Origin: an uncultured Bacteroidota bacterium
GTDB lineage: Bacteria; Bacteroidota; Bacteroidia; Bacteroidales; P3
DNA: 64,000 nt
Direction: 5' to 3'
Assembly: GCA_902774395.1 (NCBI GenBank)
Contig: CACYIK010000004.1
Coordinates: 30,932 to 94,931 of the forward strand
Shown here: positions 38,656-47,251 of the stretch, in pieces
How the letters are laid out: the number at the start of each line of letters is the position of its first letter
Position numbering within the stretch: the first letter of the stretch is position 1
Notes under the pieces: generated by a model
Database searches by the model: none
Told to the model about the DNA's origin: nothing
What the model saw: the letters and a program-made list of their open reading frames with translations, nothing else
Translations under genes and position numbers: made by a program

Positions 38656-38790
38656 CACTGATACTTAACACCAACACCGTACCAACTCCGTATCAAGTCC
38701 GACTCAACTCCGACCCAAGTCCGACTATGGTAGGAGTTGATACGGTGTTGGTAGGGTGTTGGTAGGTGTTTGATAGGGTATTGGTACGGT
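38656..38790. repeat. stutter-word hairpin element, copy 2 of the dispersed repeat seen at 8694-8800
   Basis: The left arm CACTGATACTTAACACCAACACCGTACCAACTCCGTATCAAGTCCGACTCAACTCCGACCC pairs with the right arm GGAGTTGATACGGTGTTGGTAGGGTGTTGGTAGGTGTTTGATAGGGTATTGGTACGG. Confidence 0.85.
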
Positions 38791-41187
38791 TTAGAACTGG
38801 AGTTGGAGGCCGACGGTGAGGCGCGGGAGGAGGACCTTGCCGGGGGCGGGGTCCTTTCCGAGGTCCTCAAGACGGTAGCGGGCATAGACGCCTATAACGT
38901 CGTAGGTGAGGCGGGTGACGACGCCATAGGTAATACGGTAGTCCTCGGTAGCTTTGGCATCGGAGTAGGAGTGCTCGCTGTAGTTGGACGAGGAGCCATT
39001 GGGATTTTCTCCGCCGAGGGTGTAGGTGTCACCCTCGCCGCTCACGTAGACGCCAAGGTCCCAATGGAGGCCATTGCCGAAGAGGCCTAGGGCACGGAGG
39101 CGGATGCGCTGGAAGAGTTCAAGATTGAGGACCTCGCTCATTTCGAGGCTGCGGTTGATGACCTCCTTGTAGCCGCTCAGGTCAGCCTGGGTGATACCCA
39201 GCGAGGTCTCGAAGTCGTTGAGGGGTGCGTCGTTGAAACGGTAGTGCGTGAAGGTCATGCCGATGCCGATACCAATGCTATAGGTCTTGCTGTAGGACTG
39301 GAGGATGCGGATGCCGAAGCTCCAACTGGGGGACCAGCCGTTGACAGGCATTTCAGCACTCTCAGTGGAGATGGGCAGGCCGAAGCCAAAGTAGACATGG
39401 GAGTGATATTTGGCGTTGCTTCCATAGAGGGAGGGCTGCTGCATATCATCGTCACGGTAATGTTTGTCGGAGGCGGCGAAAGCGTCCTCGGAAGTTATGG
39501 TACCAAAACTGTCGTGATCAGCATCAGGATCTATGCTGGAGGTAATGCCCTCTGTATAACCATCAAGGAAGACTTCGAGGCGATGGCCTGAACAGATGCT
39601 GAAATGTATGGCACCGGTGGTGTCGAGGAAGTAGATGTGCTGATTGCCGTAGCGCACGACATATCCATCGATGGCCATCTCTTTATAGAAGATGGGCTTG
39701 TTGACAACCGCACGGAGTGGACGGACAAGGATTTCGCCGTCTTTCTCTTCGAAGTGGAAGGTGGGGGACGGAGTGGCTGAGTGACTAGGTGACTGAGTGA
39801 AAAAGTCGGCCTGGGGGACGCCGTAGCCGAAGGCGTAGTCACAGTAGGGGTAGAGGTCGGCAGACTGCTCGATGAGGTGGAACATCTCCATGGCGCTCTT
39901 GCCGGGCGAGGCCTGCCAGGCACAGGCGGCAAAGCCGGCGACGAGGGGGCAGGAGAAGGAGGTGCCGTGGACATAGTGATATTTGTTGTCACCCTTGCCG
40001 GTATTGGCAGTGCGGGCGTAGCCAAAGGCGCAGACGTTGGGTTTCTGGCGGCCGTCGGCGCTGGGACCGTAAGATGAGAAGGCGATGTGGTTGTACTTAG
40101 TGAGGCTATTTTCGATGCCACCCACGCAGAGGACGCTATCGGCGTCGGCGGGAGTGATGATGGTTTTCCACTGGCTATCGGTGGCTTCGTTGCCGGCGGA
40201 GTTGACGACGAGCATGCCCTTGCGGGCAGCAAGGTTGCCTGCCTTGGCGACATAGGAGGTGCCGTCCATGTCGGTGGTGTAGTGGCGTTCCTTTCCATAG
40301 CCGAGGGAGGAAGAGATGATGTTGGCGCCGTTGCGGTCGGCCCATTCCACGGCCATCTGCCACCAGACCTCTTCCTTGAAGGGCTCGGAGTTGACCTCGG
40401 TACGTGCCAGGAGGAACTCGGCGCCTGTGGCGAGGCCAAGGTCGCGGTTGTCCATGCGGCCGGCGATACAGGAGAGCGTCATGGTGCCGTGGGAGTTCCA
40501 TCCGTAGACATCCTCCTTATCCTTGGGAAAATTCCAGGTCTTGATAATCTGATGGTTGTCGCGCAGATGTTTGAAGGCGGCGTGGGTGTTGACCTGCGGG
40601 AAGCCGCCGTCGAAGACGGCGATGCGGATGCCACGGCCGTCGAAGCCGGCGTCACGGAAGGCCTTGCCATTCATACGGACGAGCTGAGCCTCGAGAGGGC
40701 CGTCGACGGTGGCGATGTCGAAGAGGCCAGGAACGTCGGGTGACTGATTGGCTGAGTGACTAAGTGGCTGAGTGGCTGACGCGAGGTGGAGGCCGGTGGC
40801 GGCGATGGGTTGGACGCGGAGAACGTAGGGCAGATGCTCGATGGCAACGATTTGGTCAGGGGTGGCCATGACACCTAGGGCGTTCATCCAACGGCTAACG
40901 CCGATTAATGATGAATAATGAGTGATGAATGATGAACTATCGGTGAGGATCGTCTCTATCTGTTTTACGTAACCGTCGTTCAGCGGGTAGTTGGTGATGT
41001 CGTAGAGGTCGGCACCGCACTGGTGGTAGCGTTCGATGGCCTTGGCGTCGAAATAAGAGTAAGGGTCGAAGGTAGTGCCAGCCTTGTCGGCAAGGAAGAC
41101 CCAGTAGGCCTGTTGCGAGTGGAGAGTGGAGAGAGGAAAGTGCAAAGCAATAGCACAAAGCACTGCAAAAAACAAAATCTTTTTCAT
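38791..41187 (-). CDS. S8 (subtilisin-like) serine peptidase with a C-terminal beta-barrel-like domain
   Basis: Signal peptide. Catalytic triad contexts IAVFDGGF (Asp), NSHGTMT (His), GTSFSCPLVAG (Ser). The C-terminal ~260 aa show alternating-hydrophobic strands and end in LTVGLQLQF. Contains four in-frame word arrays. Confidence 0.82.
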   Translation of the reverse strand: MKKILFFAVLCAIALHFPLSTLHSQQAYWVFLADKAGTTFDPYSYFDAKAIERYHQCGADLYDITNYPLNDGYVKQIETILTDSSSFITHYSSLIGVSRWMNALGVMATPDQIVAIEHLPYVLRVQPIAATGLHLASATQPLSHSANQSPDVPGLFDIATVDGPLEAQLVRMNGKAFRDAGFDGRGIRIAVFDGGFPQVNTHAAFKHLRDNHQIIKTWNFPKDKEDVYGWNSHGTMTLSCIAGRMDNRDLGLATGAEFLLARTEVNSEPFKEEVWWQMAVEWADRNGANIISSSLGYGKERHYTTDMDGTSYVAKAGNLAARKGMLVVNSAGNEATDSQWKTIITPADADSVLCVGGIENSLTKYNHIAFSSYGPSADGRQKPNVCAFGYARTANTGKGDNKYHYVHGTSFSCPLVAGFAACAWQASPGKSAMEMFHLIEQSADLYPYCDYAFGYGVPQADFFTQSPSHSATPSPTFHFEEKDGEILVRPLRAVVNKPIFYKEMAIDGYVVRYGNQHIYFLDTTGAIHFSICSGHRLEVFLDGYTEGITSSIDPDADHDSFGTITSEDAFAASDKHYRDDDMQQPSLYGSNAKYHSHVYFGFGLPISTESAEMPVNGWSPSWSFGIRILQSYSKTYSIGIGIGMTFTHYRFNDAPLNDFETSLGITQADLSGYKEVINRSLEMSEVLNLELFQRIRLRALGLFGNGLHWDLGVYVSGEGDTYTLGGENPNGSSSNYSEHSYSDAKATEDYRITYGVVTRLTYDVIGVYARYRLEDLGKDPAPGKVLLPRLTVGLQLQF

Positions 41188-41195
41188 GGTGTTTA

Positions 41196-41906
41196 TTATT
41201 GTAATACTGTATGCAAGATTTCGTGGCTGTGGAAATGTGAGAAGCCGCTGAGGTGGAGGTGGTAGTAGGTGATGAGGGCGTTGATGAGCGCGGTGCGCTC
41301 ATCAAGTGGAGAGTGGAGAGTGGAGAGTGGAGAGTTAAGGTAGTGGTGGAGGGTTTCGGAGAGGTGGGGGGAAAGGGTGGTCTCGGTGGAGGCGGAGACG
41401 AAGCGGCCTTCTTGAAGATCGAAGAGGGGCTCGCGGGTACAGTAGTTATCGAAAGGCTCGATGCCGAGGTGACGGGCAACGGTGAGGAGGAAGGTTATGG
41501 GAAGTGATGAGTGAGGAGTGGGGAGTGAGGAATTTATGGATTCGACGTAGTCGAAGAGGGCGGGCATGGGTTCGGATTCACGGAGGGCTTTATAGAGCAC
41601 TTCCGTCATGAAGAAACGCAGAGCGTTTTGTGTGGGTGAGTAACTGAGTGGCTGAGTGGCTGAGTGACTGAGTAACTGAGAGAGTTCTTTGACGTAGTTG
41701 AGGTCGGTCTTTTCGTTGTTGTAGACCACCATATCGAGGCATGAGAGGGGCTGCAGGAGGTTCTGTTTTACGCGGCCTCCCCTACCCCTTACACCTTTTA
41801 TTATATAGGAGCGCACCCCGAGCTGCCGCGTGAAGACCTTCACCACTACCGAGGACTCTGAGTAGGGAGTGGTGTGGAGTACGAGGCCACGGGTGGAGAG
41901 AAGCAT
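41196..41906 (-). CDS. recO: DNA repair protein RecO
   Basis: 236 aa. The N-terminal OB-fold sequence TRGLVLHTTPYSESSVVVKVFTRQLGVRSYIIKGVR is typical of RecO. Contains three in-frame word arrays. Confidence 0.8.
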   Translation of the reverse strand: MLLSTRGLVLHTTPYSESSVVVKVFTRQLGVRSYIIKGVRGRGGRVKQNLLQPLSCLDMVVYNNEKTDLNYVKELSQLLSHSATQPLSYSPTQNALRFFMTEVLYKALRESEPMPALFDYVESINSSLPTPHSSLPITFLLTVARHLGIEPFDNYCTREPLFDLQEGRFVSASTETTLSPHLSETLHHYLNSPLSTLHSPLDERTALINALITYYHLHLSGFSHFHSHEILHTVLQ

Positions 41907-41958
41907 TGTTTAATGATGAATGATGAGTGATGAGTGATGAATGATAAGTGATAAACGA

Positions 41959-44310
41959 CTATCTGATGATAAGGATCTTGGCCACGGAGCGGTTGTCACC
42001 TTGGCTATCGGAAGCGAAGACGTAGTAGACGCCCGAGGCCACCTTTTCGCCGCTGGCGGTGCGACCGTCCCAGATGGCCTGACCACCGTTGGCGGTGGTG
42101 GTATAGACGGTATGTCCGGCAGCATCGGTGATATGCACCAAGCCGTTGCGGGTGAAGCCCTTGATGGCGATAGGACCGTCATAGTCGGGCTTTACGGGAT
42201 TGGGGAAAGCATAGACCTTGTCGAGCGGCGAGCTGACGGCATAGGTGGCGGTGCCGCGGTAGACCTGCAAGCCACGGTCGGTGCCAATATAGACCTCGCC
42301 GGTGCGCTCGTTGATACCCAGAGCGACAACCTTATCGGAATAGAGCGGGCTGTTGCTGGCAGTGAAATGCGCAAGCTGATCGAGGCCGTTGGCGGAGATG
42401 AGGTAGAGTCCCCCGCTGGCTGTGCCCACCCACTTGCGGTTAGCGCCGTCGACAGCGATGGCGGTGATACTCTCGTAAGCCATGAGGTATTCCGAGAACT
42501 CACCGTTGGTGATGGTGATGTTGCTGCAGTTCACCGGTGCATATTCTCCGTTACCGCCGTTGTTGAAAGCCTTGTAGCCGTCGTAGATAACCTTGATACC
42601 CTTGTTGGTGCCAATCCAGATGTTACCGTTATGATCCTGCAACAGGGCGGTGACGGCGTCGGTGGAGAGTTTGCTGCCGTTGTTGGGGTTGACTTTTGCC
42701 ATGTGGCTCACGCCGTCGTGGACATAGATGACGTTGCTGCGACCGCAGAACCACTTATAGCCTGTGACGCTGTCGCAGACAAGCTTGTCGACCTCGGGGG
42801 TAGTGACCATTGACATGGTGGGGAAACCCTTCCAGGTGCCGTCGGCACGACGGACAGCGAGGGCATGAGTGCTTTGGGAGTTGAGTATCCACAGGTCGCC
42901 ACGGAGGTCGAACTCCACCGCGCCGGTATTGAGACGGCTATAAGATCCCGAGCTGTAGGGTATCAGAGCGCCCTCCGTATTGGTGCTATTGTAGAGCGTC
43001 TGCACCTGGTTGTTGCGTATCGACACCACCCCATGTCCCCATAGGGCAGCCACGCTCTCATTGGTGTCGCGGGGATTGACAGCCACGTCGAGGAGGTCGC
43101 TAAGACCGTCGAGGAGACCATTGCTGCGGTCGAGAGAGGACCACCTTTGACCCACGGCGGTATACACATTGGGGGCGAGATAGGCACTGGCGTATGTCGG
43201 TGTATGGCCACCAGGGCAAAGCATCATACGATAGTTGAAAGGTACGAGACGGTAGACATTGTCGGCATTCGCGGGACCGGAAGGACGGTGGTATTCCTCT
43301 TCGCCGGAGGGATGAATGCCCACGATACCCTCCCATGGATGCGCCACCCATAGGATACCCTCGCGAGCGAAGGTGGCGTCGCGAGCCTCGAGGGTGCCCC
43401 AGTTGTAGGTGCTGTAGTCGTCAATGAGGGTAAACAACGTGTCGTAGACAAGCACATGGCCATCGGCGCACACCGCCACCTTGTCGGCGGAAGCCTGCAT
43501 GGCGTTCACAACACCACCCCAGCGCAGAAGGGAATAGGAGGAACCACGGCGGACAAGGAGCGAGCAATTATCGGGGTTGGAGGCGTAGCCGGCAACCAAA
43601 AGTTGTTGTGCAACGGGACAGAGCATGGCGACATTGAGGCTGTCGAGCCGGTGGTCGATATCCCAACGGTCACTGACGGAAGGGTGTTGTTCTGAGACGG
43701 AGAGCCGCTTCAAGCCCTCGCCGGTGGCGGCGAAGAGGCTGTCGGGCATGAAGGCGAGGTCGTAGACAGGCGTATAGGTGCCGCCGGCGCCGAGATACCA
43801 GGTCTCCTTGATTTCCTGACGGCGGACATCCACCACCACCACGCCAAAGCCTGTAGCCAGATAGGCGTTGCCGTTGGAGAAACGCACGTGATAGATGCTT
43901 TTGTCGCCAGAAATCTCGCTGCGTTTGATGTCGGAGAGGTTGTATGTACGGCCATCGATGAGCAGGTCGACATTGGAGTTATTGTAGGCCACCACAAGAC
44001 ATTGTGTAGCCTTGTCATAGCCTATTGTGGCGATACCGACATCGTTCAGTCCGTCTCCCTTGTCGAAAGTTGTCAGCGTGTGGTCGTCGAGGTCGTAGCA
44101 AAACACGCCGTCCAGGGCAGCAGCATAGATTCGGTCGCCGGCATCGACCACATGATTGACCAATGAATAGTCCAGACATCCGCGCCAGTGGCCAATGGCC
44201 GTCTGGGCAATTGCTGAATTGAAAATTGAAAATTGGAAAATGAAAAATAAACTTACACAGAGAATGCTGCGCAAGCAACTGACCACCGACCGCTGACGAA
44301 CAACTTTCAT
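41959..44310 (-). CDS. two-beta-propeller protein with a T9SS-type C-terminal domain (PorZ-like)
   Basis: 783 aa. Signal peptide, repeated propeller blades (WIGT/WVGT/IGTDRGL motifs), and a C-terminal Ig-like domain AFPNPVKPDYDGPIAIKG...SGVYYVFA...AKILIIR. Size and architecture match PorZ. Not verified. Confidence 0.5.
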   Translation of the reverse strand: MKVVRQRSVVSCLRSILCVSLFFIFQFSIFNSAIAQTAIGHWRGCLDYSLVNHVVDAGDRIYAAALDGVFCYDLDDHTLTTFDKGDGLNDVGIATIGYDKATQCLVVAYNNSNVDLLIDGRTYNLSDIKRSEISGDKSIYHVRFSNGNAYLATGFGVVVVDVRRQEIKETWYLGAGGTYTPVYDLAFMPDSLFAATGEGLKRLSVSEQHPSVSDRWDIDHRLDSLNVAMLCPVAQQLLVAGYASNPDNCSLLVRRGSSYSLLRWGGVVNAMQASADKVAVCADGHVLVYDTLFTLIDDYSTYNWGTLEARDATFAREGILWVAHPWEGIVGIHPSGEEEYHRPSGPANADNVYRLVPFNYRMMLCPGGHTPTYASAYLAPNVYTAVGQRWSSLDRSNGLLDGLSDLLDVAVNPRDTNESVAALWGHGVVSIRNNQVQTLYNSTNTEGALIPYSSGSYSRLNTGAVEFDLRGDLWILNSQSTHALAVRRADGTWKGFPTMSMVTTPEVDKLVCDSVTGYKWFCGRSNVIYVHDGVSHMAKVNPNNGSKLSTDAVTALLQDHNGNIWIGTNKGIKVIYDGYKAFNNGGNGEYAPVNCSNITITNGEFSEYLMAYESITAIAVDGANRKWVGTASGGLYLISANGLDQLAHFTASNSPLYSDKVVALGINERTGEVYIGTDRGLQVYRGTATYAVSSPLDKVYAFPNPVKPDYDGPIAIKGFTRNGLVHITDAAGHTVYTTTANGGQAIWDGRTASGEKVASGVYYVFASDSQGDNRSVAKILIIR

Positions 44311-46213: not shown

Positions 46214-47251
46214 TTAGAATTTCTTGTTAAACACCTTGTAGAACGACTGAACCGACAAGGAATTCTCATCCCACTGGTTCTGCGCCGACACCTCGTTGAC
46301 ATAAAGCAGGGCCTCATCGCGCGTGTCGATGCTGTTCAGGCGAAGGATAAAGTCGTTGTAAGCCTTCATATTGTTGTGGAACAACTCGGACATGAAGCTG
46401 AACTTGTCATTGATGTTGATTACCGTACGAAGGTCTAAGACTTTCTTGCCCAGTCCCACTTCACTATCCACACGCAGTTCGCCGCTTTCCACGCCGCCCA
46501 GCTTCTCACCCAGCGTGCGCACCGTGGGTTTCTCGACGACAGGATTCTTCAGGTAGTCGAGCAGCGAAGCCTGGGTGCCTGACTTGGAGTCGCTGGCAGC
46601 AACGGACTCCTGGACGGGTTCGGGTGCAGGTTCAGGAGCGGGTTCGGGTGCGGGAACAGGTTCGGGTTCAGGAGCGGGTTCGGGTTCTGGCTCCGGTTCG
46701 GGTTCAGGCGTAGCTTCAATAATCACTTCGTCAAACAACAGGCCGTTACCGTTTCCCTCCAAGTCTTCCATCTGAGGCATCTCCACGGGCTCGGGTTCGG
46801 GAGCGGGTGCAGGCTCAGGAACAGGCTCGGGTTCAGGTGCGGGCTCGGGCTCCGGTTCAGGTTCCGGTTCAGGTTCCGGCTCGGGCTCGGGTTCCGGCTC
46901 GGGAGCAGGTGCGGGTTCGGGTTTAACCATAGGTTCGGGGGCGTCCGTAGGCTCAGCCTCCACGTTTTCCACACCCATGGCGGCCATCGTCGCCATCACG
47001 GTCGACGACAGTATTTCGTCGTCAGGCATAACAAGCGTCTCCATCCGATGTGCCTCGTCACCCTCTTTGGTCTTTCCGCCGTCCACTTTCTCTTCTCCCA
47101 TACGTAAAGCCACATCATACAAACGGCGAAGGTCCTCAAGCAAGAGGTCTCTCTCGATGAGGCTCACCTGTCCCTCATGCGCCACAATGCGGTTGGCAAT
47201 GGCACACAACTTCTGCATACCCTCTGTCAGTTCTTTGACACTGTTTTTCAT
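46214..47251 (-). CDS. hypothetical protein with two long Pro-Glu ([12 protein letters not shown]) linkers
   Basis: 345 aa. Structured N- and C-terminal domains are separated by hexanucleotide GGTTC(G/A)-type repeat tracts at about 46610-46720 and 46790-46925. Confidence 0.6.

Follow-up and report, generated by a model that had tools for sequence, protein, structure and literature searches.

In-frame heptamer and octamer arrays in an S8 peptidase gene and recO probably belong to a genome-wide, slippage-varied repeat population of a Bacteroidales lineage

Results

Tandem arrays of the S8 peptidase gene, recO and the porZ–recO spacer

Eight tandem arrays of 7- or 8-base units lie in the S8 peptidase gene, in recO and in the spacer between recO and porZ. 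Such arrays occur throughout the genome of this Bacteroidales lineage, and the eight are probably members of that population, varied in unit number by replication slippage and then sorted by selection. The window (the whole stretch of DNA analysed, 64,000 nucleotides) holds 38 arrays. The three genes share the minus strand and are those named in the first-pass annotation. The S8 (subtilase) peptidase gene (38791–41187; 798 aa with a signal peptide; Pfam PF00082, E = 9.7e-42) contains four of the arrays and has orthologues in 36 of the 40 genomes of the genus. Three more are in recO (41196–41906; 236 aa), whose product matches Pfam RecO_N over residues 1–76 and RecO_C over residues 94–221 and which has orthologues in 31 of 31 genomes. 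The porZ-like T9SS gene (41959–44310; Pfam PorZ_N_b_propeller, E = 1.1e-33) lies upstream of recO. TRF recovers all eight arrays that the annotation had named (4–6 copies, 73–100% match), in frame in the coding parts and on the minus strand, and the peptides it had quoted (SHSATPS, ATQPLSHSANQ, LSHSATQPLSYSPTQ, PLSTLHS and SPLSTLHSPL) are present in the translations.

In the S8 gene, a period-8 array of CACTCAGT/CACCTAGT/CACTCAGC units (39767–39800) occupies the linker 3' of the catalytic domain, and encodes SPSHSATPS where the orthologues have a GGKKAV-type sequence that is 3 aa shorter. Within the species this site has three states, namely the array just described, a CAATCAAG/CACACAAT array (+3 nt), or none. 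A second period-8 array (CAGCCACT/TAGTCACT, 40740–40779, peptide ATQPLSHSANQ) is found in the hypervariable linker between propeptide and catalytic domain, which in other species has other repeats such as YSENSE or SDYSEY. The period-7 array of TCATCAT/TCATCAC units at 40903–40936 (peptide SSFITHYSSL) is a clean 10-aa insertion in this species alone, missing in all 19 of the other orthologues shown, and the DNA of the relatives, which reads ACCGAGGAAATCGG, has no local seed for it. In the signal peptide, a TCTCCAC array (period 7, 41117–41142) encodes PLSTLHS and adds 5 aa relative to most orthologues; in genome G017 an AATTTTC array (SFQFSIF) sits there. Just 3' of the S8 stop codon, TRF also reports an inverted pair of 11-mer arrays (ACCAACTCCGA and its complement, 38670–38790, neither strand assigned) that forms a hairpin.

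The recO gene has a perfect TCTCCAC array (4.4 copies of the 7-base unit, TRF match 100%, 41305–41335) in a loop of the C-domain, encoding SPLSTLHSPL, of which G017 has a decayed copy. Another RecO loop is encoded by a period-7 array of CCTCACT/CCCCACT/CATCACT units (41503–41531, peptide SSLPTPHSSL), and this loop has unrelated units in other species. The third array, of period 8 (CAGTTACT/CAGTCACT/CAGCCACT, 41632–41680, peptide LSHSATQPLSYSPTQ), marks the junction of the N- and C-domains, between the end of RecO_N at residue 76 and the start of RecO_C at residue 94; it does not vary within the species, and its occurrence in close species is patchy. Placement of the RecO loops is based on Pfam domain borders and alignments; an AlphaFold2 model of RecO, for which 26 sequences were aligned, reached a mean pLDDT of 44.7 and was discarded as poor. 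The eighth array (TCATCAC/TCATCAT, period 7, 41914–41952) fills the 52-nt porZ–recO spacer up to the recO start codon, a spacer that has a different array (TTAATACA) in G017 and none in G009 and G011. Further upstream, the stretch FIFQFSIFNS in the PorZ signal peptide is encoded by a minus-strand AATTTTC array (44217–44246; TRF and translation) of the commonest family in the genome, which counts 108 arrays.

The annotation had sorted the arrays into three separate word families, A, B and C. On the coding strand they have a CACTC core in common and form one superfamily, with units CACTCAG[T/C], CACTCAT, CACTCTC and CACTCC[T/C]. The core occurs in seven of the eight consecutive arrays, against 17% genome-wide. 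The mirrored order of the families about the S8/recO junction is weak, since three mirrored inner pairs arise in 12 of the 560 A3B3C2 orderings (post hoc P ~0.02) and family assignment is fuzzy; we judge the symmetry to be a post hoc pattern. That all copies have one orientation is true but trivial, because the three genes share a strand and a stop-codon filter operates.

Coding filter and tolerant sites

Among 496 non-triplet arrays in genes, 392 are free of stop codons in the sense orientation, and 323 of these contain stops in the antisense direction. Three units of a 7- or 8-base repeat encode one cyclic peptide of 7 or 8 residues whichever frame is used, so identical peptides arise in unrelated proteins. 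The earlier proposal that the common peptides of S8 and RecO come from repeats at the DNA level, and not from shared protein function, therefore holds; they follow from the repeat period. The sites that the arrays occupy are gaps between Pfam domains, hypervariable linkers and signal peptides. Alignment of the orthologues defines the S8 and RecO insertions, and other species have different units, or none, at these tolerant sites. In-gene arrays persist only at tolerant protein loops, so the S8/recO pair is not special.

Strain variation

The arrays of this stretch are seen again in eight or more independent metagenome assemblies (sources ENA, JGI and NCBI), and 11 contigs are on record with the identical RecO protein. 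Over the recO–S8 stretch of eight strain-level loci all indels fall on arrays, save for a divergent patch of strain L100. Outside genes the steps are 7 and 11 nt, that is one unit; the spacer array is 7 nt shorter in strains L099, L100 and L102, and the hairpin 3' of S8 is 11 nt shorter in strains L102–L104. Within genes the steps are 21 and 24 nt, that is three units. The array at 40740–40779 lacks 24 nt in strains L099 and L102, and the one at 41305–41335 is short by exactly 21 nt, or 7 aa, in strain L105 (protein P0015). At 41503–41531 the mosaic of CCTCACT and CATCACT units differs between strains at constant length. The restriction of indels to arrays, with one-unit steps outside and three-unit steps inside genes, points to replication slippage followed by selection, and it demonstrates both the slippage steps and the selective filter. 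The variants were read from consensus assemblies, in which minority off-frame variants would be hidden.

Genome-wide population of arrays

The 2.35-Mb genome of this rumen-type Bacteroidales has 3,108 TRF arrays, 1,543 of them with a period of 6–12 and at least three copies, so that arrays like those of S8 and recO, which the annotation had taken for a peculiarity of two adjacent genes, occur throughout. Period 7 dominates; arrays of at least 3.5 copies number 791 for period 7, 154 for period 8, 133 for period 9, 74 for period 10 and 96 for period 11. The density of 6.9 arrays per 10 kb compares with 0.04 in an order-3 Markov simulation (~170-fold), with 0.8–4.8 in relatives of the same genus and with 0–1 in most of the other Bacteroidales families sampled. 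The units are diverse, with 456 canonical types; the largest families have 108, 102 and 60 arrays, and the top family makes up only 7% of the total.

By position, 678 arrays are inside genes, 259 at gene edges and 606 intergenic. Gene counts depend on a crude gene caller based on codon usage, and a conservative subset of genes is therefore given: 354 arrays lie deep in coding sequence (30 or more codons into well-scoring genes of at least 900 nt), at least 228 arrays of period 7 or 8 lie deep in good genes, and 202 of 783 long genes (26%) have a deep array. Housekeeping genes, including recO and mutL, are among those affected. Judged by gene content, mismatch repair has not simply been lost, both MutS and MutL being present, and its loss was rejected as an explanation. 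Intergenic arrays follow no clear rule of position or orientation with respect to start and stop codons.

Local clustering of related arrays

Mapping across the genome reveals a modest local clustering of related arrays. Same-orientation related pairs are in excess over shuffles at 100–500 bp (59 vs 17.8 expected) and, genome-wide, at 0.5–2 kb (116 vs 52.6), and the raw counts show no excess beyond 20 kb. Segmental duplication is partly accepted as a source. Homologous flanks, conserved ends or a fixed internal sequence would mark copies of small mobile repeats (MITE/REP-like or small dispersed repeats); only 42 of 266 related nearby pairs have such flanks. When the pairs with homologous flanks are removed, 84 remain at 0.5–2 kb against 49.3 expected (z = 4.8) and there is no excess at 250–500 bp or beyond 2 kb; the excess at 0.5–2 kb thus amounts to 1.7–2.2 times the shuffles. 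A second genome of the genus, G003, replicates the clustering (14 vs 3.6 at 0.5–2 kb). Between arrays of different genes only a modest excess is seen, 33 vs 19 in one distance bin. Regional base composition was rejected as the cause, as the GC contents of unit and flank are uncorrelated (r = 0.05) and GC-matched shuffles keep the excess.

The first-pass annotation had proposed a process that seeds related words locally. Related units do cluster, but the S8/recO locus taken alone does not establish it, its strict unit-match cluster score giving P = 0.19 after genome-wide correction. At the locus itself, three of the 14 family-A arrays lie within 1.9 kb, the remaining 11 being singletons, and the 14-mer TAGTCACTCAGCCA has three copies in the genome, all on this contig and two of them in S8. 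In G017, AATTTTC-type units are found instead in both the recO loop and the S8 signal peptide. Block copying between dispersed arrays was assessed by shared higher-order unit order (non-periodic blocks of at least three units). Measured against unit-shuffled controls, such sharing is clear in a few families and weak or absent in most; for family A it is not significant (6 vs 3.4, null maximum 8). Local seeding of related units is on these data modestly supported.

Inverted pairs and PF05635 cassettes

Inverted pairs of related arrays less than 100 bp apart number 88, against 9 expected; 42 are inside genes, and the 11-mer hairpin at 38670–38790 is one of the 88. The genome has 13 clear PF05635 ('23S rRNA intervening-sequence protein') genes, and 12 of these are flanked by two inverted arrays of the same unit, the unit differing from copy to copy. 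These cassettes are at intergenic sites, and the order of unit variants is sometimes the same in both arms. Contig C4 has no PF05635 match, and the eight arrays of S8, recO and the spacer have one orientation and no partner arm. Among the papers covered by the literature search, none ties PF05635 genes to heptamer arrays.

Discussion

Origin and maintenance of the arrays

In the reading that we prefer, replication slippage would add whole units to these arrays (7- or 8-base units in 4–6 copies) or remove them, and selection would then sort the products. Between genes any number of units would be tolerated. An array inside a gene would survive only if the sense orientation of the repeat has no stop codon, if its length changes by multiples of three units, so that the frame is kept, and if it lies in a loop, linker or signal peptide that accepts any filler. 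Fast turnover of units within arrays would then place different units in the orthologous loops of sister species.

We can only infer how a gene acquires an array in the first place, and how related units come to be near one another. Intermediates of +7 and +14 nt are frameshifts, so a heptamer array would not readily arise in an essential gene by stepwise slippage. The clean 30-nt insertion in S8, with no visible local seed in the relatives, speaks against slippage as the sole process. Growth from local sequence does not predict the dominance of a few families or the want of correlation between unit and flank GC, and slippage alone leaves the local clustering of related units unaccounted for. 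One alternative, close to the process proposed in the annotation, is short-range templated seeding, in which ready-made blocks are copied from an array within ~2 kb by template switching, microhomology-primed repair or gene conversion and slippage merely maintains them; block birth would skip the frameshifted intermediates, and the S8 insertion with no local seed fits it. The excess of related pairs at 100–500 bp and 500–2000 bp and its absence beyond 20 kb fit such copying, as do its survival of GC-matched shuffling and of the removal of homologous flanks (at 0.5–2 kb), its replication in G003, and the local concentration of the CACTC core, of family A, of the 14-mer and, in G017, of AATTTTC-type units. 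Much of the raw excess, however, consists of intergenic multi-array blocks and local duplications, the excess between different genes is small, the locus alone is not significant, unit order within families is not clearly shared beyond controls, and imported recombination tracts with other unit preferences could give the same clustering. We regard templated seeding as possible though not favoured; it adds a mechanism of birth to slippage and selection more than it excludes slippage.

The excess of close inverted pairs, and the position of 12 of 13 PF05635 genes between inverted arrays, would also fit a selfish, hairpin-forming element akin to the PF05635 cassettes, with the arrays as its arms or as solo arms left behind. 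This seems unlikely for the arrays of S8 and recO, given their single orientation, the absence of a partner arm and of a PF05635 gene on the contig. Moreover, arm sequence is not conserved from copy to copy, unlike known mobile-element ends, most arrays have no homologous flanks, and a cassette that targets, or is stabilised by, pre-existing array hairpins fits equally well. Phase variation, with single-unit slippage toggling S8, recO and many other genes, draws on the frameshift that each one-unit change of a 7- or 8-base unit brings and on the arrays that adjoin start codons or lie in 26% of the long genes. It is very improbable, as the in-gene length variants are all in frame (21 and 24 nt, in consensus assemblies) and one-unit steps are intergenic, housekeeping genes such as recO and mutL are hit, and copy numbers are low (4–6). 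A selected functional motif has nothing beyond the identity of the peptides in its favour; this identity follows from the period, orthologues have unrelated peptides or none at the sites, and the TCATCAC/TCATCAT unit also fills the non-coding porZ–recO spacer. This explanation is scarcely credible, and the same is true of an assembly artefact, given the recurrence of the arrays in at least eight independent assemblies and of the identical RecO on 11 contigs.

Comparison with known repeats

Slippage-varied arrays of this kind have close counterparts. Prokaryotic repeats of 5–11 nt, in which heptamers are over-represented and polymerase slippage has been proposed (Mrazek, Guo and Shah 2007, as summarised in PMC4679880 and PMC4692102), resemble them in their genome-wide excess, dominance of period 7, sporadic lineage-specific spread and strong variation of length and sequence between close relatives. 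The present arrays show the features of that class, being in excess over composition, commonest as heptamers and polymorphic in unit number between strains. In that work the repeats of coding regions were reported to have mostly multiple-of-three units, whereas ~45–60% of the arrays here touch genes, and this uncultured Bacteroidales genus is not among the lineages described.

Heptamers known as STRR in cyanobacteria (Calothrix PCC 7601, Nostoc) and GGGAATC/GGGGAYT in Xanthomonas and Nostoc (PMC4692102) are likewise tandem, with few families dominant per genome and some inverted pairs capable of forming hairpins, and the array between a given pair of genes can differ from one sister species to another. 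They are reported there as mainly intergenic (7–11% overlap ORFs in Xanthomonas) and dominated by one or a few units, whereas here there is a large in-frame fraction and 456 unit types; the arrays are thus neither mainly intergenic nor made of few units. The direct repeat TAACTGA occurs in marine Beggiatoaceae, some Cyanobacteria and five Bacteroidetes, in the last beside other heptamer repeats, and often adjoins start codons, as does the recO spacer array (PMC4679880). It is translatable only in 'reverse' orientation, because the forward orientation contains stops. It is a single unit in 2–6 copies, mostly just 5' of start codons, and has been proposed to act in translation; its fixed position and orientation are not found for the present arrays.

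Phase variation through simple sequence repeats is well known, for example at the contingency loci of Haemophilus influenzae (PMC2651432), where unit number likewise changes by slippage within the species. Contingency loci shift the frame or promoter spacing of surface genes, whereas the in-gene variants here are in frame and genes of every kind are involved. In Coxiella burnetii the 23S rRNA IVS has an S23p (PF05635) ORF within a stem-loop (PMC4990558). The PF05635 genes elsewhere in our genome similarly sit in a loop between complementary arms, but these arms are tandem arrays that differ with each copy, and the sites are intergenic and not in rRNA. The S8/recO arrays, with neither partner arm nor ORF, do not resemble such elements.

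Implications

Birth as complete blocks by active short-range copying, whether by template switching between neighbours or by an activity linked to the PF05635 cassettes, is in our view rather doubtful. If true, it would mean that loops, signal peptides and spacers are continuously rewritten over a quarter of the genes, and non-triplet repeats could then get into essential genes with no frameshifted stage. It would also account for the dominance of a few unit families and for the clustering of related units within ~2 kb. How bacterial heptamer repeats originate has long gone unexplained, and the association of PF05635 cassettes with array hairpins may be relevant to it.

Unrelated proteins can acquire identical peptides through the dynamics of DNA repeats, so annotators should not call such peptides motifs. 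This uncultured Bacteroidales genus is an extreme case, with ~1,500 arrays that reach a quarter of the long genes, mutL and recO included. It offers direct strain-level evidence for a rule by which unit number changes in threes within genes and singly between them, and its non-triplet repeats are a steady supply of variation in protein loops and signal peptides.

Tandem arrays of the S8-recO block

The porZ-like gene (41959-44310), recO (41196-41906; Pfam RecO_N residues 1-76, RecO_C residues 94-221) and the S8 subtilase gene (38791-41187; Pfam Peptidase_S8 residues 184-456) share one orientation, on the minus strand. Tandem Repeats Finder (TRF) recovers all the short tandem repeats (arrays) named in the first-pass annotation, and the peptides quoted there are found in the gene translations. 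Period-8 arrays lie at 39767-39800 and 40740-40779 in the S8 gene and at 41632-41680 in recO; period-7 arrays lie at 40903-40936 and 41117-41142 (signal peptide) in the S8 gene, at 41305-41335 (100% perfect) and 41503-41531 in recO and at 41914-41952 in the porZ-recO spacer. The annotation had divided these words among three families, A (8-nt period), B (ATGATGA/GTGATGA) and C (GTGGAGA). On the coding strand the units read CACTCAG[T/C] (A), CACTCAT/CATTCAT (B) and CACTCTC (C), with CACTCC[T/C] in the recO copy assigned to B. The pentamer CACTC (GAGTG on the plus strand) is common to all of them, and the three merge into one family with this core. It is present in 258 of 1,543 arrays genome-wide, in 7 of the 8 consecutive arrays of the block and in 0 of 30 other arrays in the window.

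Past its catalytic domain the S8 protein has ~340 residues that match nothing in Pfam, and its C-terminus (...LQLQF) resembles that of outer-membrane beta-barrels. Directly past the S8 stop codon an inverted pair of 11-mer arrays (38670-38790) makes a long hairpin, one arm of which is shorter by one 11-nt unit in three strains, the other arm being unchanged. Long 6/12/36-nt repeats within a gene at 46615-46923 (GGTTCAGGTGCGGGC-like, Gly/Ser/Pro-type coding) are a triplet-compatible class, distinct from the 7/8-mers.

A genome-wide population of arrays

The surrounding assembly (2.35 Mb, 26 contigs) contains 3,108 merged TRF arrays. Among those with at least 3.5 copies, period 7 dominates (n = 791), with 154, 133, 74 and 96 arrays of periods 8, 9, 10 and 11. 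At periods 6-12 and at least three copies there are 1,543 arrays of 456 canonical unit types, so the phenomenon is not confined to the S8/recO pair. The commonest unit is AAAATTG (108 arrays), followed by ACTCATC (102, the GTGATGA of family B), AATGATG (60, its ATGATGA), AAGAATT (58), AAAGGTG (44), AAACACT (38) and ACTCTCC (35, family C); family A has 14 arrays. Density is 6.9 per 10 kb, against 0.04 in an order-3 Markov simulation and, in comparisons that ignore kinship between genomes, 0.8-4.8 in seven other species of the genus and 0-1 in larger samples of other Bacteroidales families. The abundance is an expansion specific to the lineage, with this genome at its extreme.

Arrays within genes

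With a codon-usage gene caller of our own making (1,727 genes, 86% coding), 678 of the 1,543 arrays map inside a gene, 259 to a gene edge and 606 to intergenic DNA. At least one array occurs in each of 407 genes, and arrays are about twice as numerous in the opening tenth of genes as in any other tenth. Restricting the count to well-scoring genes no shorter than 900 nt, and to arrays 30 codons or more from either gene end, is a conservative choice that still leaves 354 arrays (period 7, 179; period 8, 49), found in 202 of 783 such genes. Of the non-triplet genic arrays, 392/496 are free of stops in every sense frame, and 323 of these 392 have stops on the opposite strand. Read on the plus strand, families A and B include TGA. 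All S8/recO copies do point one way, but this is not special, since a stop-codon filter acting on three minus-strand genes accounts for it. Three 7-mers (21 nt) or three 8-mers (24 nt) span all frames and thus encode the same cyclic 7- or 8-residue peptide in each; given the repeat period, identical peptides in unrelated proteins are no surprise.

MutS and MutL genes are present in the genome. A family-A (CACTCAGY) array lies in the MutL gene region (contig C3:136504-136533; MutL_C match C3:136403-136819), so that a gene for mismatch repair is itself host to an in-frame 8-mer array.

Variation among strains

Records of the identical RecO protein come from 11 contigs, and many variants at 95-99% exist. 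Across eight strain-level loci from ENA, JGI and NCBI assemblies, each locus shows all the arrays over the part it covers, save for the variants described here; recurrence of the eight arrays in independent assemblies rules out an assembly artefact. Outside one divergent patch in locus L100, every indel in the recO-S8 stretch falls on an array, and unit steps are seen at four of them. Two are intergenic: one unit (-7 nt) is lost from the porZ-recO spacer array in L099, L100 and L102, and one (-11 nt) from the 11-mer array after S8 in L102, L103 and L104. Two are coding: the S8 array at 40740-40779 loses three 8-mers (-24 nt) in L099 and L102, and the recO TCTCCAC array three 7-mers (-21 nt, 7 aa) in L105. 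The recO array at 41503-41531 is constant in length, its CCTCACT/CATCACT unit mosaics varying by strain, and the S8 site at 39771-39800 has three states within the species: a CACTCAGY array, a CAATCAAG/CACACAAT array of unchanged period, and no array. These data show units being gained and lost, unit sequences that turn over fast, and selection that preserves the frame.

The L100 patch, equivalent to 39438-39800 in the C-terminal part of S8, has several small indels and is missing the array at 39771-39800. The patch resembles sequence brought in by recombination from another lineage.

Array sites across species

RecO sites were located by alignment over 26 genomes, against the DNA of the three nearest species, and against 26 close proteins. 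The arrays occupy the junction of the N- and C-domains and two separate loops of the C-domain, all hypervariable in sequence and length across the genus. Net length change is only 0 to +5 residues, and the arrays thus substitute loop sequence more than they add to it. At the SSLPTPHSSL loop, close relatives have SSLSTFHFPLSTF, SQFSILNSQL, TFHLSPLTSHL, TSDLRPPTSDL or VSIFNFQFSIS instead. In S8, the signal-peptide array adds 5 residues relative to most orthologues, and SSFITHYSSL is a clean 10-residue insertion that none of the 19 other orthologues shown possesses; the remaining two arrays lie in hypervariable linkers that hold different repeats in other species (e.g. YSENSEYSENSE, SDYSEYSDYSDY, SDLSDQSDLSDL).

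Most window arrays are without counterpart in another species of the genus (G017) and few are common to both; the shared recO TCTCCAC array is perfect in the window and decayed in G017. That genome has AATTTTC-type units at both the recO loop and the S8 signal peptide. An AATTTTC array also encodes FIFQFSIFNS in the PorZ signal peptide (44217-44246). This unit codes for hydrophobic residues and seems to be favoured in signal peptides.

Local clustering and the origin of arrays

The first-pass annotation attributed the S8/recO words to local seeding at the DNA level. Arrays counted as related when their consensus units had equal length and, in the best rotation, no more than one mismatch; unit labels were shuffled within classes (genic plus, genic minus, intergenic). 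Same-orientation related pairs exceed expectation at 100-500 bp (59 observed, 17.8 expected), 0.5-2 kb (116 vs 52.6), 2-5 kb (124 vs 84.3) and 5-20 kb (380 vs 318), with no excess over shuffles, all pairs considered, beyond 20 kb. GC-matched shuffles leave the excess unchanged, and unit GC does not depend on flank GC (r = 0.05). A second species (G003; 768 kb, 237 arrays) gives 14 vs 3.6 at 0.5-2 kb and 12 vs 5.4 at 2-5 kb, with no excess at 20-50 kb. The excess consists mainly of intergenic pairs; arrays in different genes give just 33 vs 19 at 0.5-2 kb. Much of the raw clustering is due to intergenic multi-array blocks, such as those on contigs C18 and C21. Flanks are homologous in 42/266 nearby related pairs (multi-array blocks or local duplications), and with all flank-similar pairs removed an excess is left only at 0.5-2 kb (84 vs 49.3, z = 4.8). 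In the C18:42642-50006 and C21:3860-4761 regions, all intergenic stretches flanking two consecutive large genes contain GAATTAA arrays that point the same way, and one spacer of ~900 bp is nearly all TCATCAC-type arrays.

Taken by itself, the S8-recO locus has a strict score of 6 related pairs among its 8 arrays, and 19% of shuffles produce a score that high at some point in the genome. The CACTC core is a stronger measure (7/8 consecutive arrays, base rate 17%; P ~0.04 by hand calculation, corrected for ~1,500 positions). Three of the 14 family-A arrays lie within 1.9 kb here, the other 11 being singletons, and the 14-mer TAGTCACTCAGCCA has three occurrences in the genome, all on the window's contig. 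Local clustering is thus real but modest. Templated copying may lie behind it, as may gene conversion or tracts imported by recombination. The excess at 0.5-2 kb, also seen in G003, modestly supports local seeding; this locus by itself is not significant on the strict score.

Stepwise growth of a heptamer inside an essential gene is barred because +7 and +14 nt are frameshifts, and where S8 carries its 30-nt insertion the relatives read ACCGAGGAAATCGG, in which no seed is visible. For these reasons birth as a block is favoured, which would proceed by multi-unit stutter or by copying of another array. Shared non-periodic order of unit variants, compared with unit-shuffled controls, shows a weak excess in large families (1,144 vs 951; 367 vs 305), a clear one in a few small families and none in family A (6 vs 3.4). 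Block copying between arrays is unproven.

Array hairpins and PF05635 genes

For inverted related pairs, strong excess is limited to distances under 100 bp (88 vs 9 expected; 11 vs 0.7 in G003); these pairs are array hairpins. Outside the window the genome has 13 clear PF05635 genes ('23S rRNA intervening-sequence protein', a four-helix bundle; e.g. C10:31895-32355, C3:73257-73711, C1:144096-144517 and C11:28743-29256), 12 of them flanked by an inverted array pair of one unit that differs at every copy. In some copies the order of unit variants is equal in both arms, and in one subfamily the arms also have a GGACAATA motif in common. The element often fills the spacer exactly, from the upstream gene's stop to the downstream gene's start codon. 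The known relative of this arrangement is the S23p ORF within the stem-loop of the Coxiella 23S rRNA intervening sequence (PMC4990558); a literature search found no paper tying the PF05635 family to heptamer arrays. Array hairpins and PF05635 cassettes may be connected. The eight S8/recO/spacer arrays were rejected as an element of this type, being without a partner arm or such a gene nearby.

Relation to known repeats

According to Mrazek et al. (2007), as relayed in PMC4679880 and PMC4692102, heptamers are over-represented among prokaryotic 5-11-nt repeats and sporadic across the phylogeny, and 7 nt may correspond to the DNA segment that polymerase holds. The same two papers describe cyanobacterial heptamer repeats, TAACTGA repeats in Beggiatoaceae and five Bacteroidetes, and Xanthomonas GGGAATC repeats, some in inverted pairs and differing between sister species. 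The present genome differs in lineage, in its number of unit types and in its very large in-frame fraction, whereas the non-triplet units of published repeats are, as these accounts give them, mostly outside genes.

The first-pass observation is confirmed and its interpretation supported in part. The best explanation for the S8/recO words is a genome-wide population of slippage-prone tandem arrays with 7- to 11-base units, on which stop codons, the reading frame and the tolerance of protein loops act as filters; local seeding may reasonably be added to it but is unproven. The population is a variant form of a known repeat class that reaches unusually deep into coding sequence.
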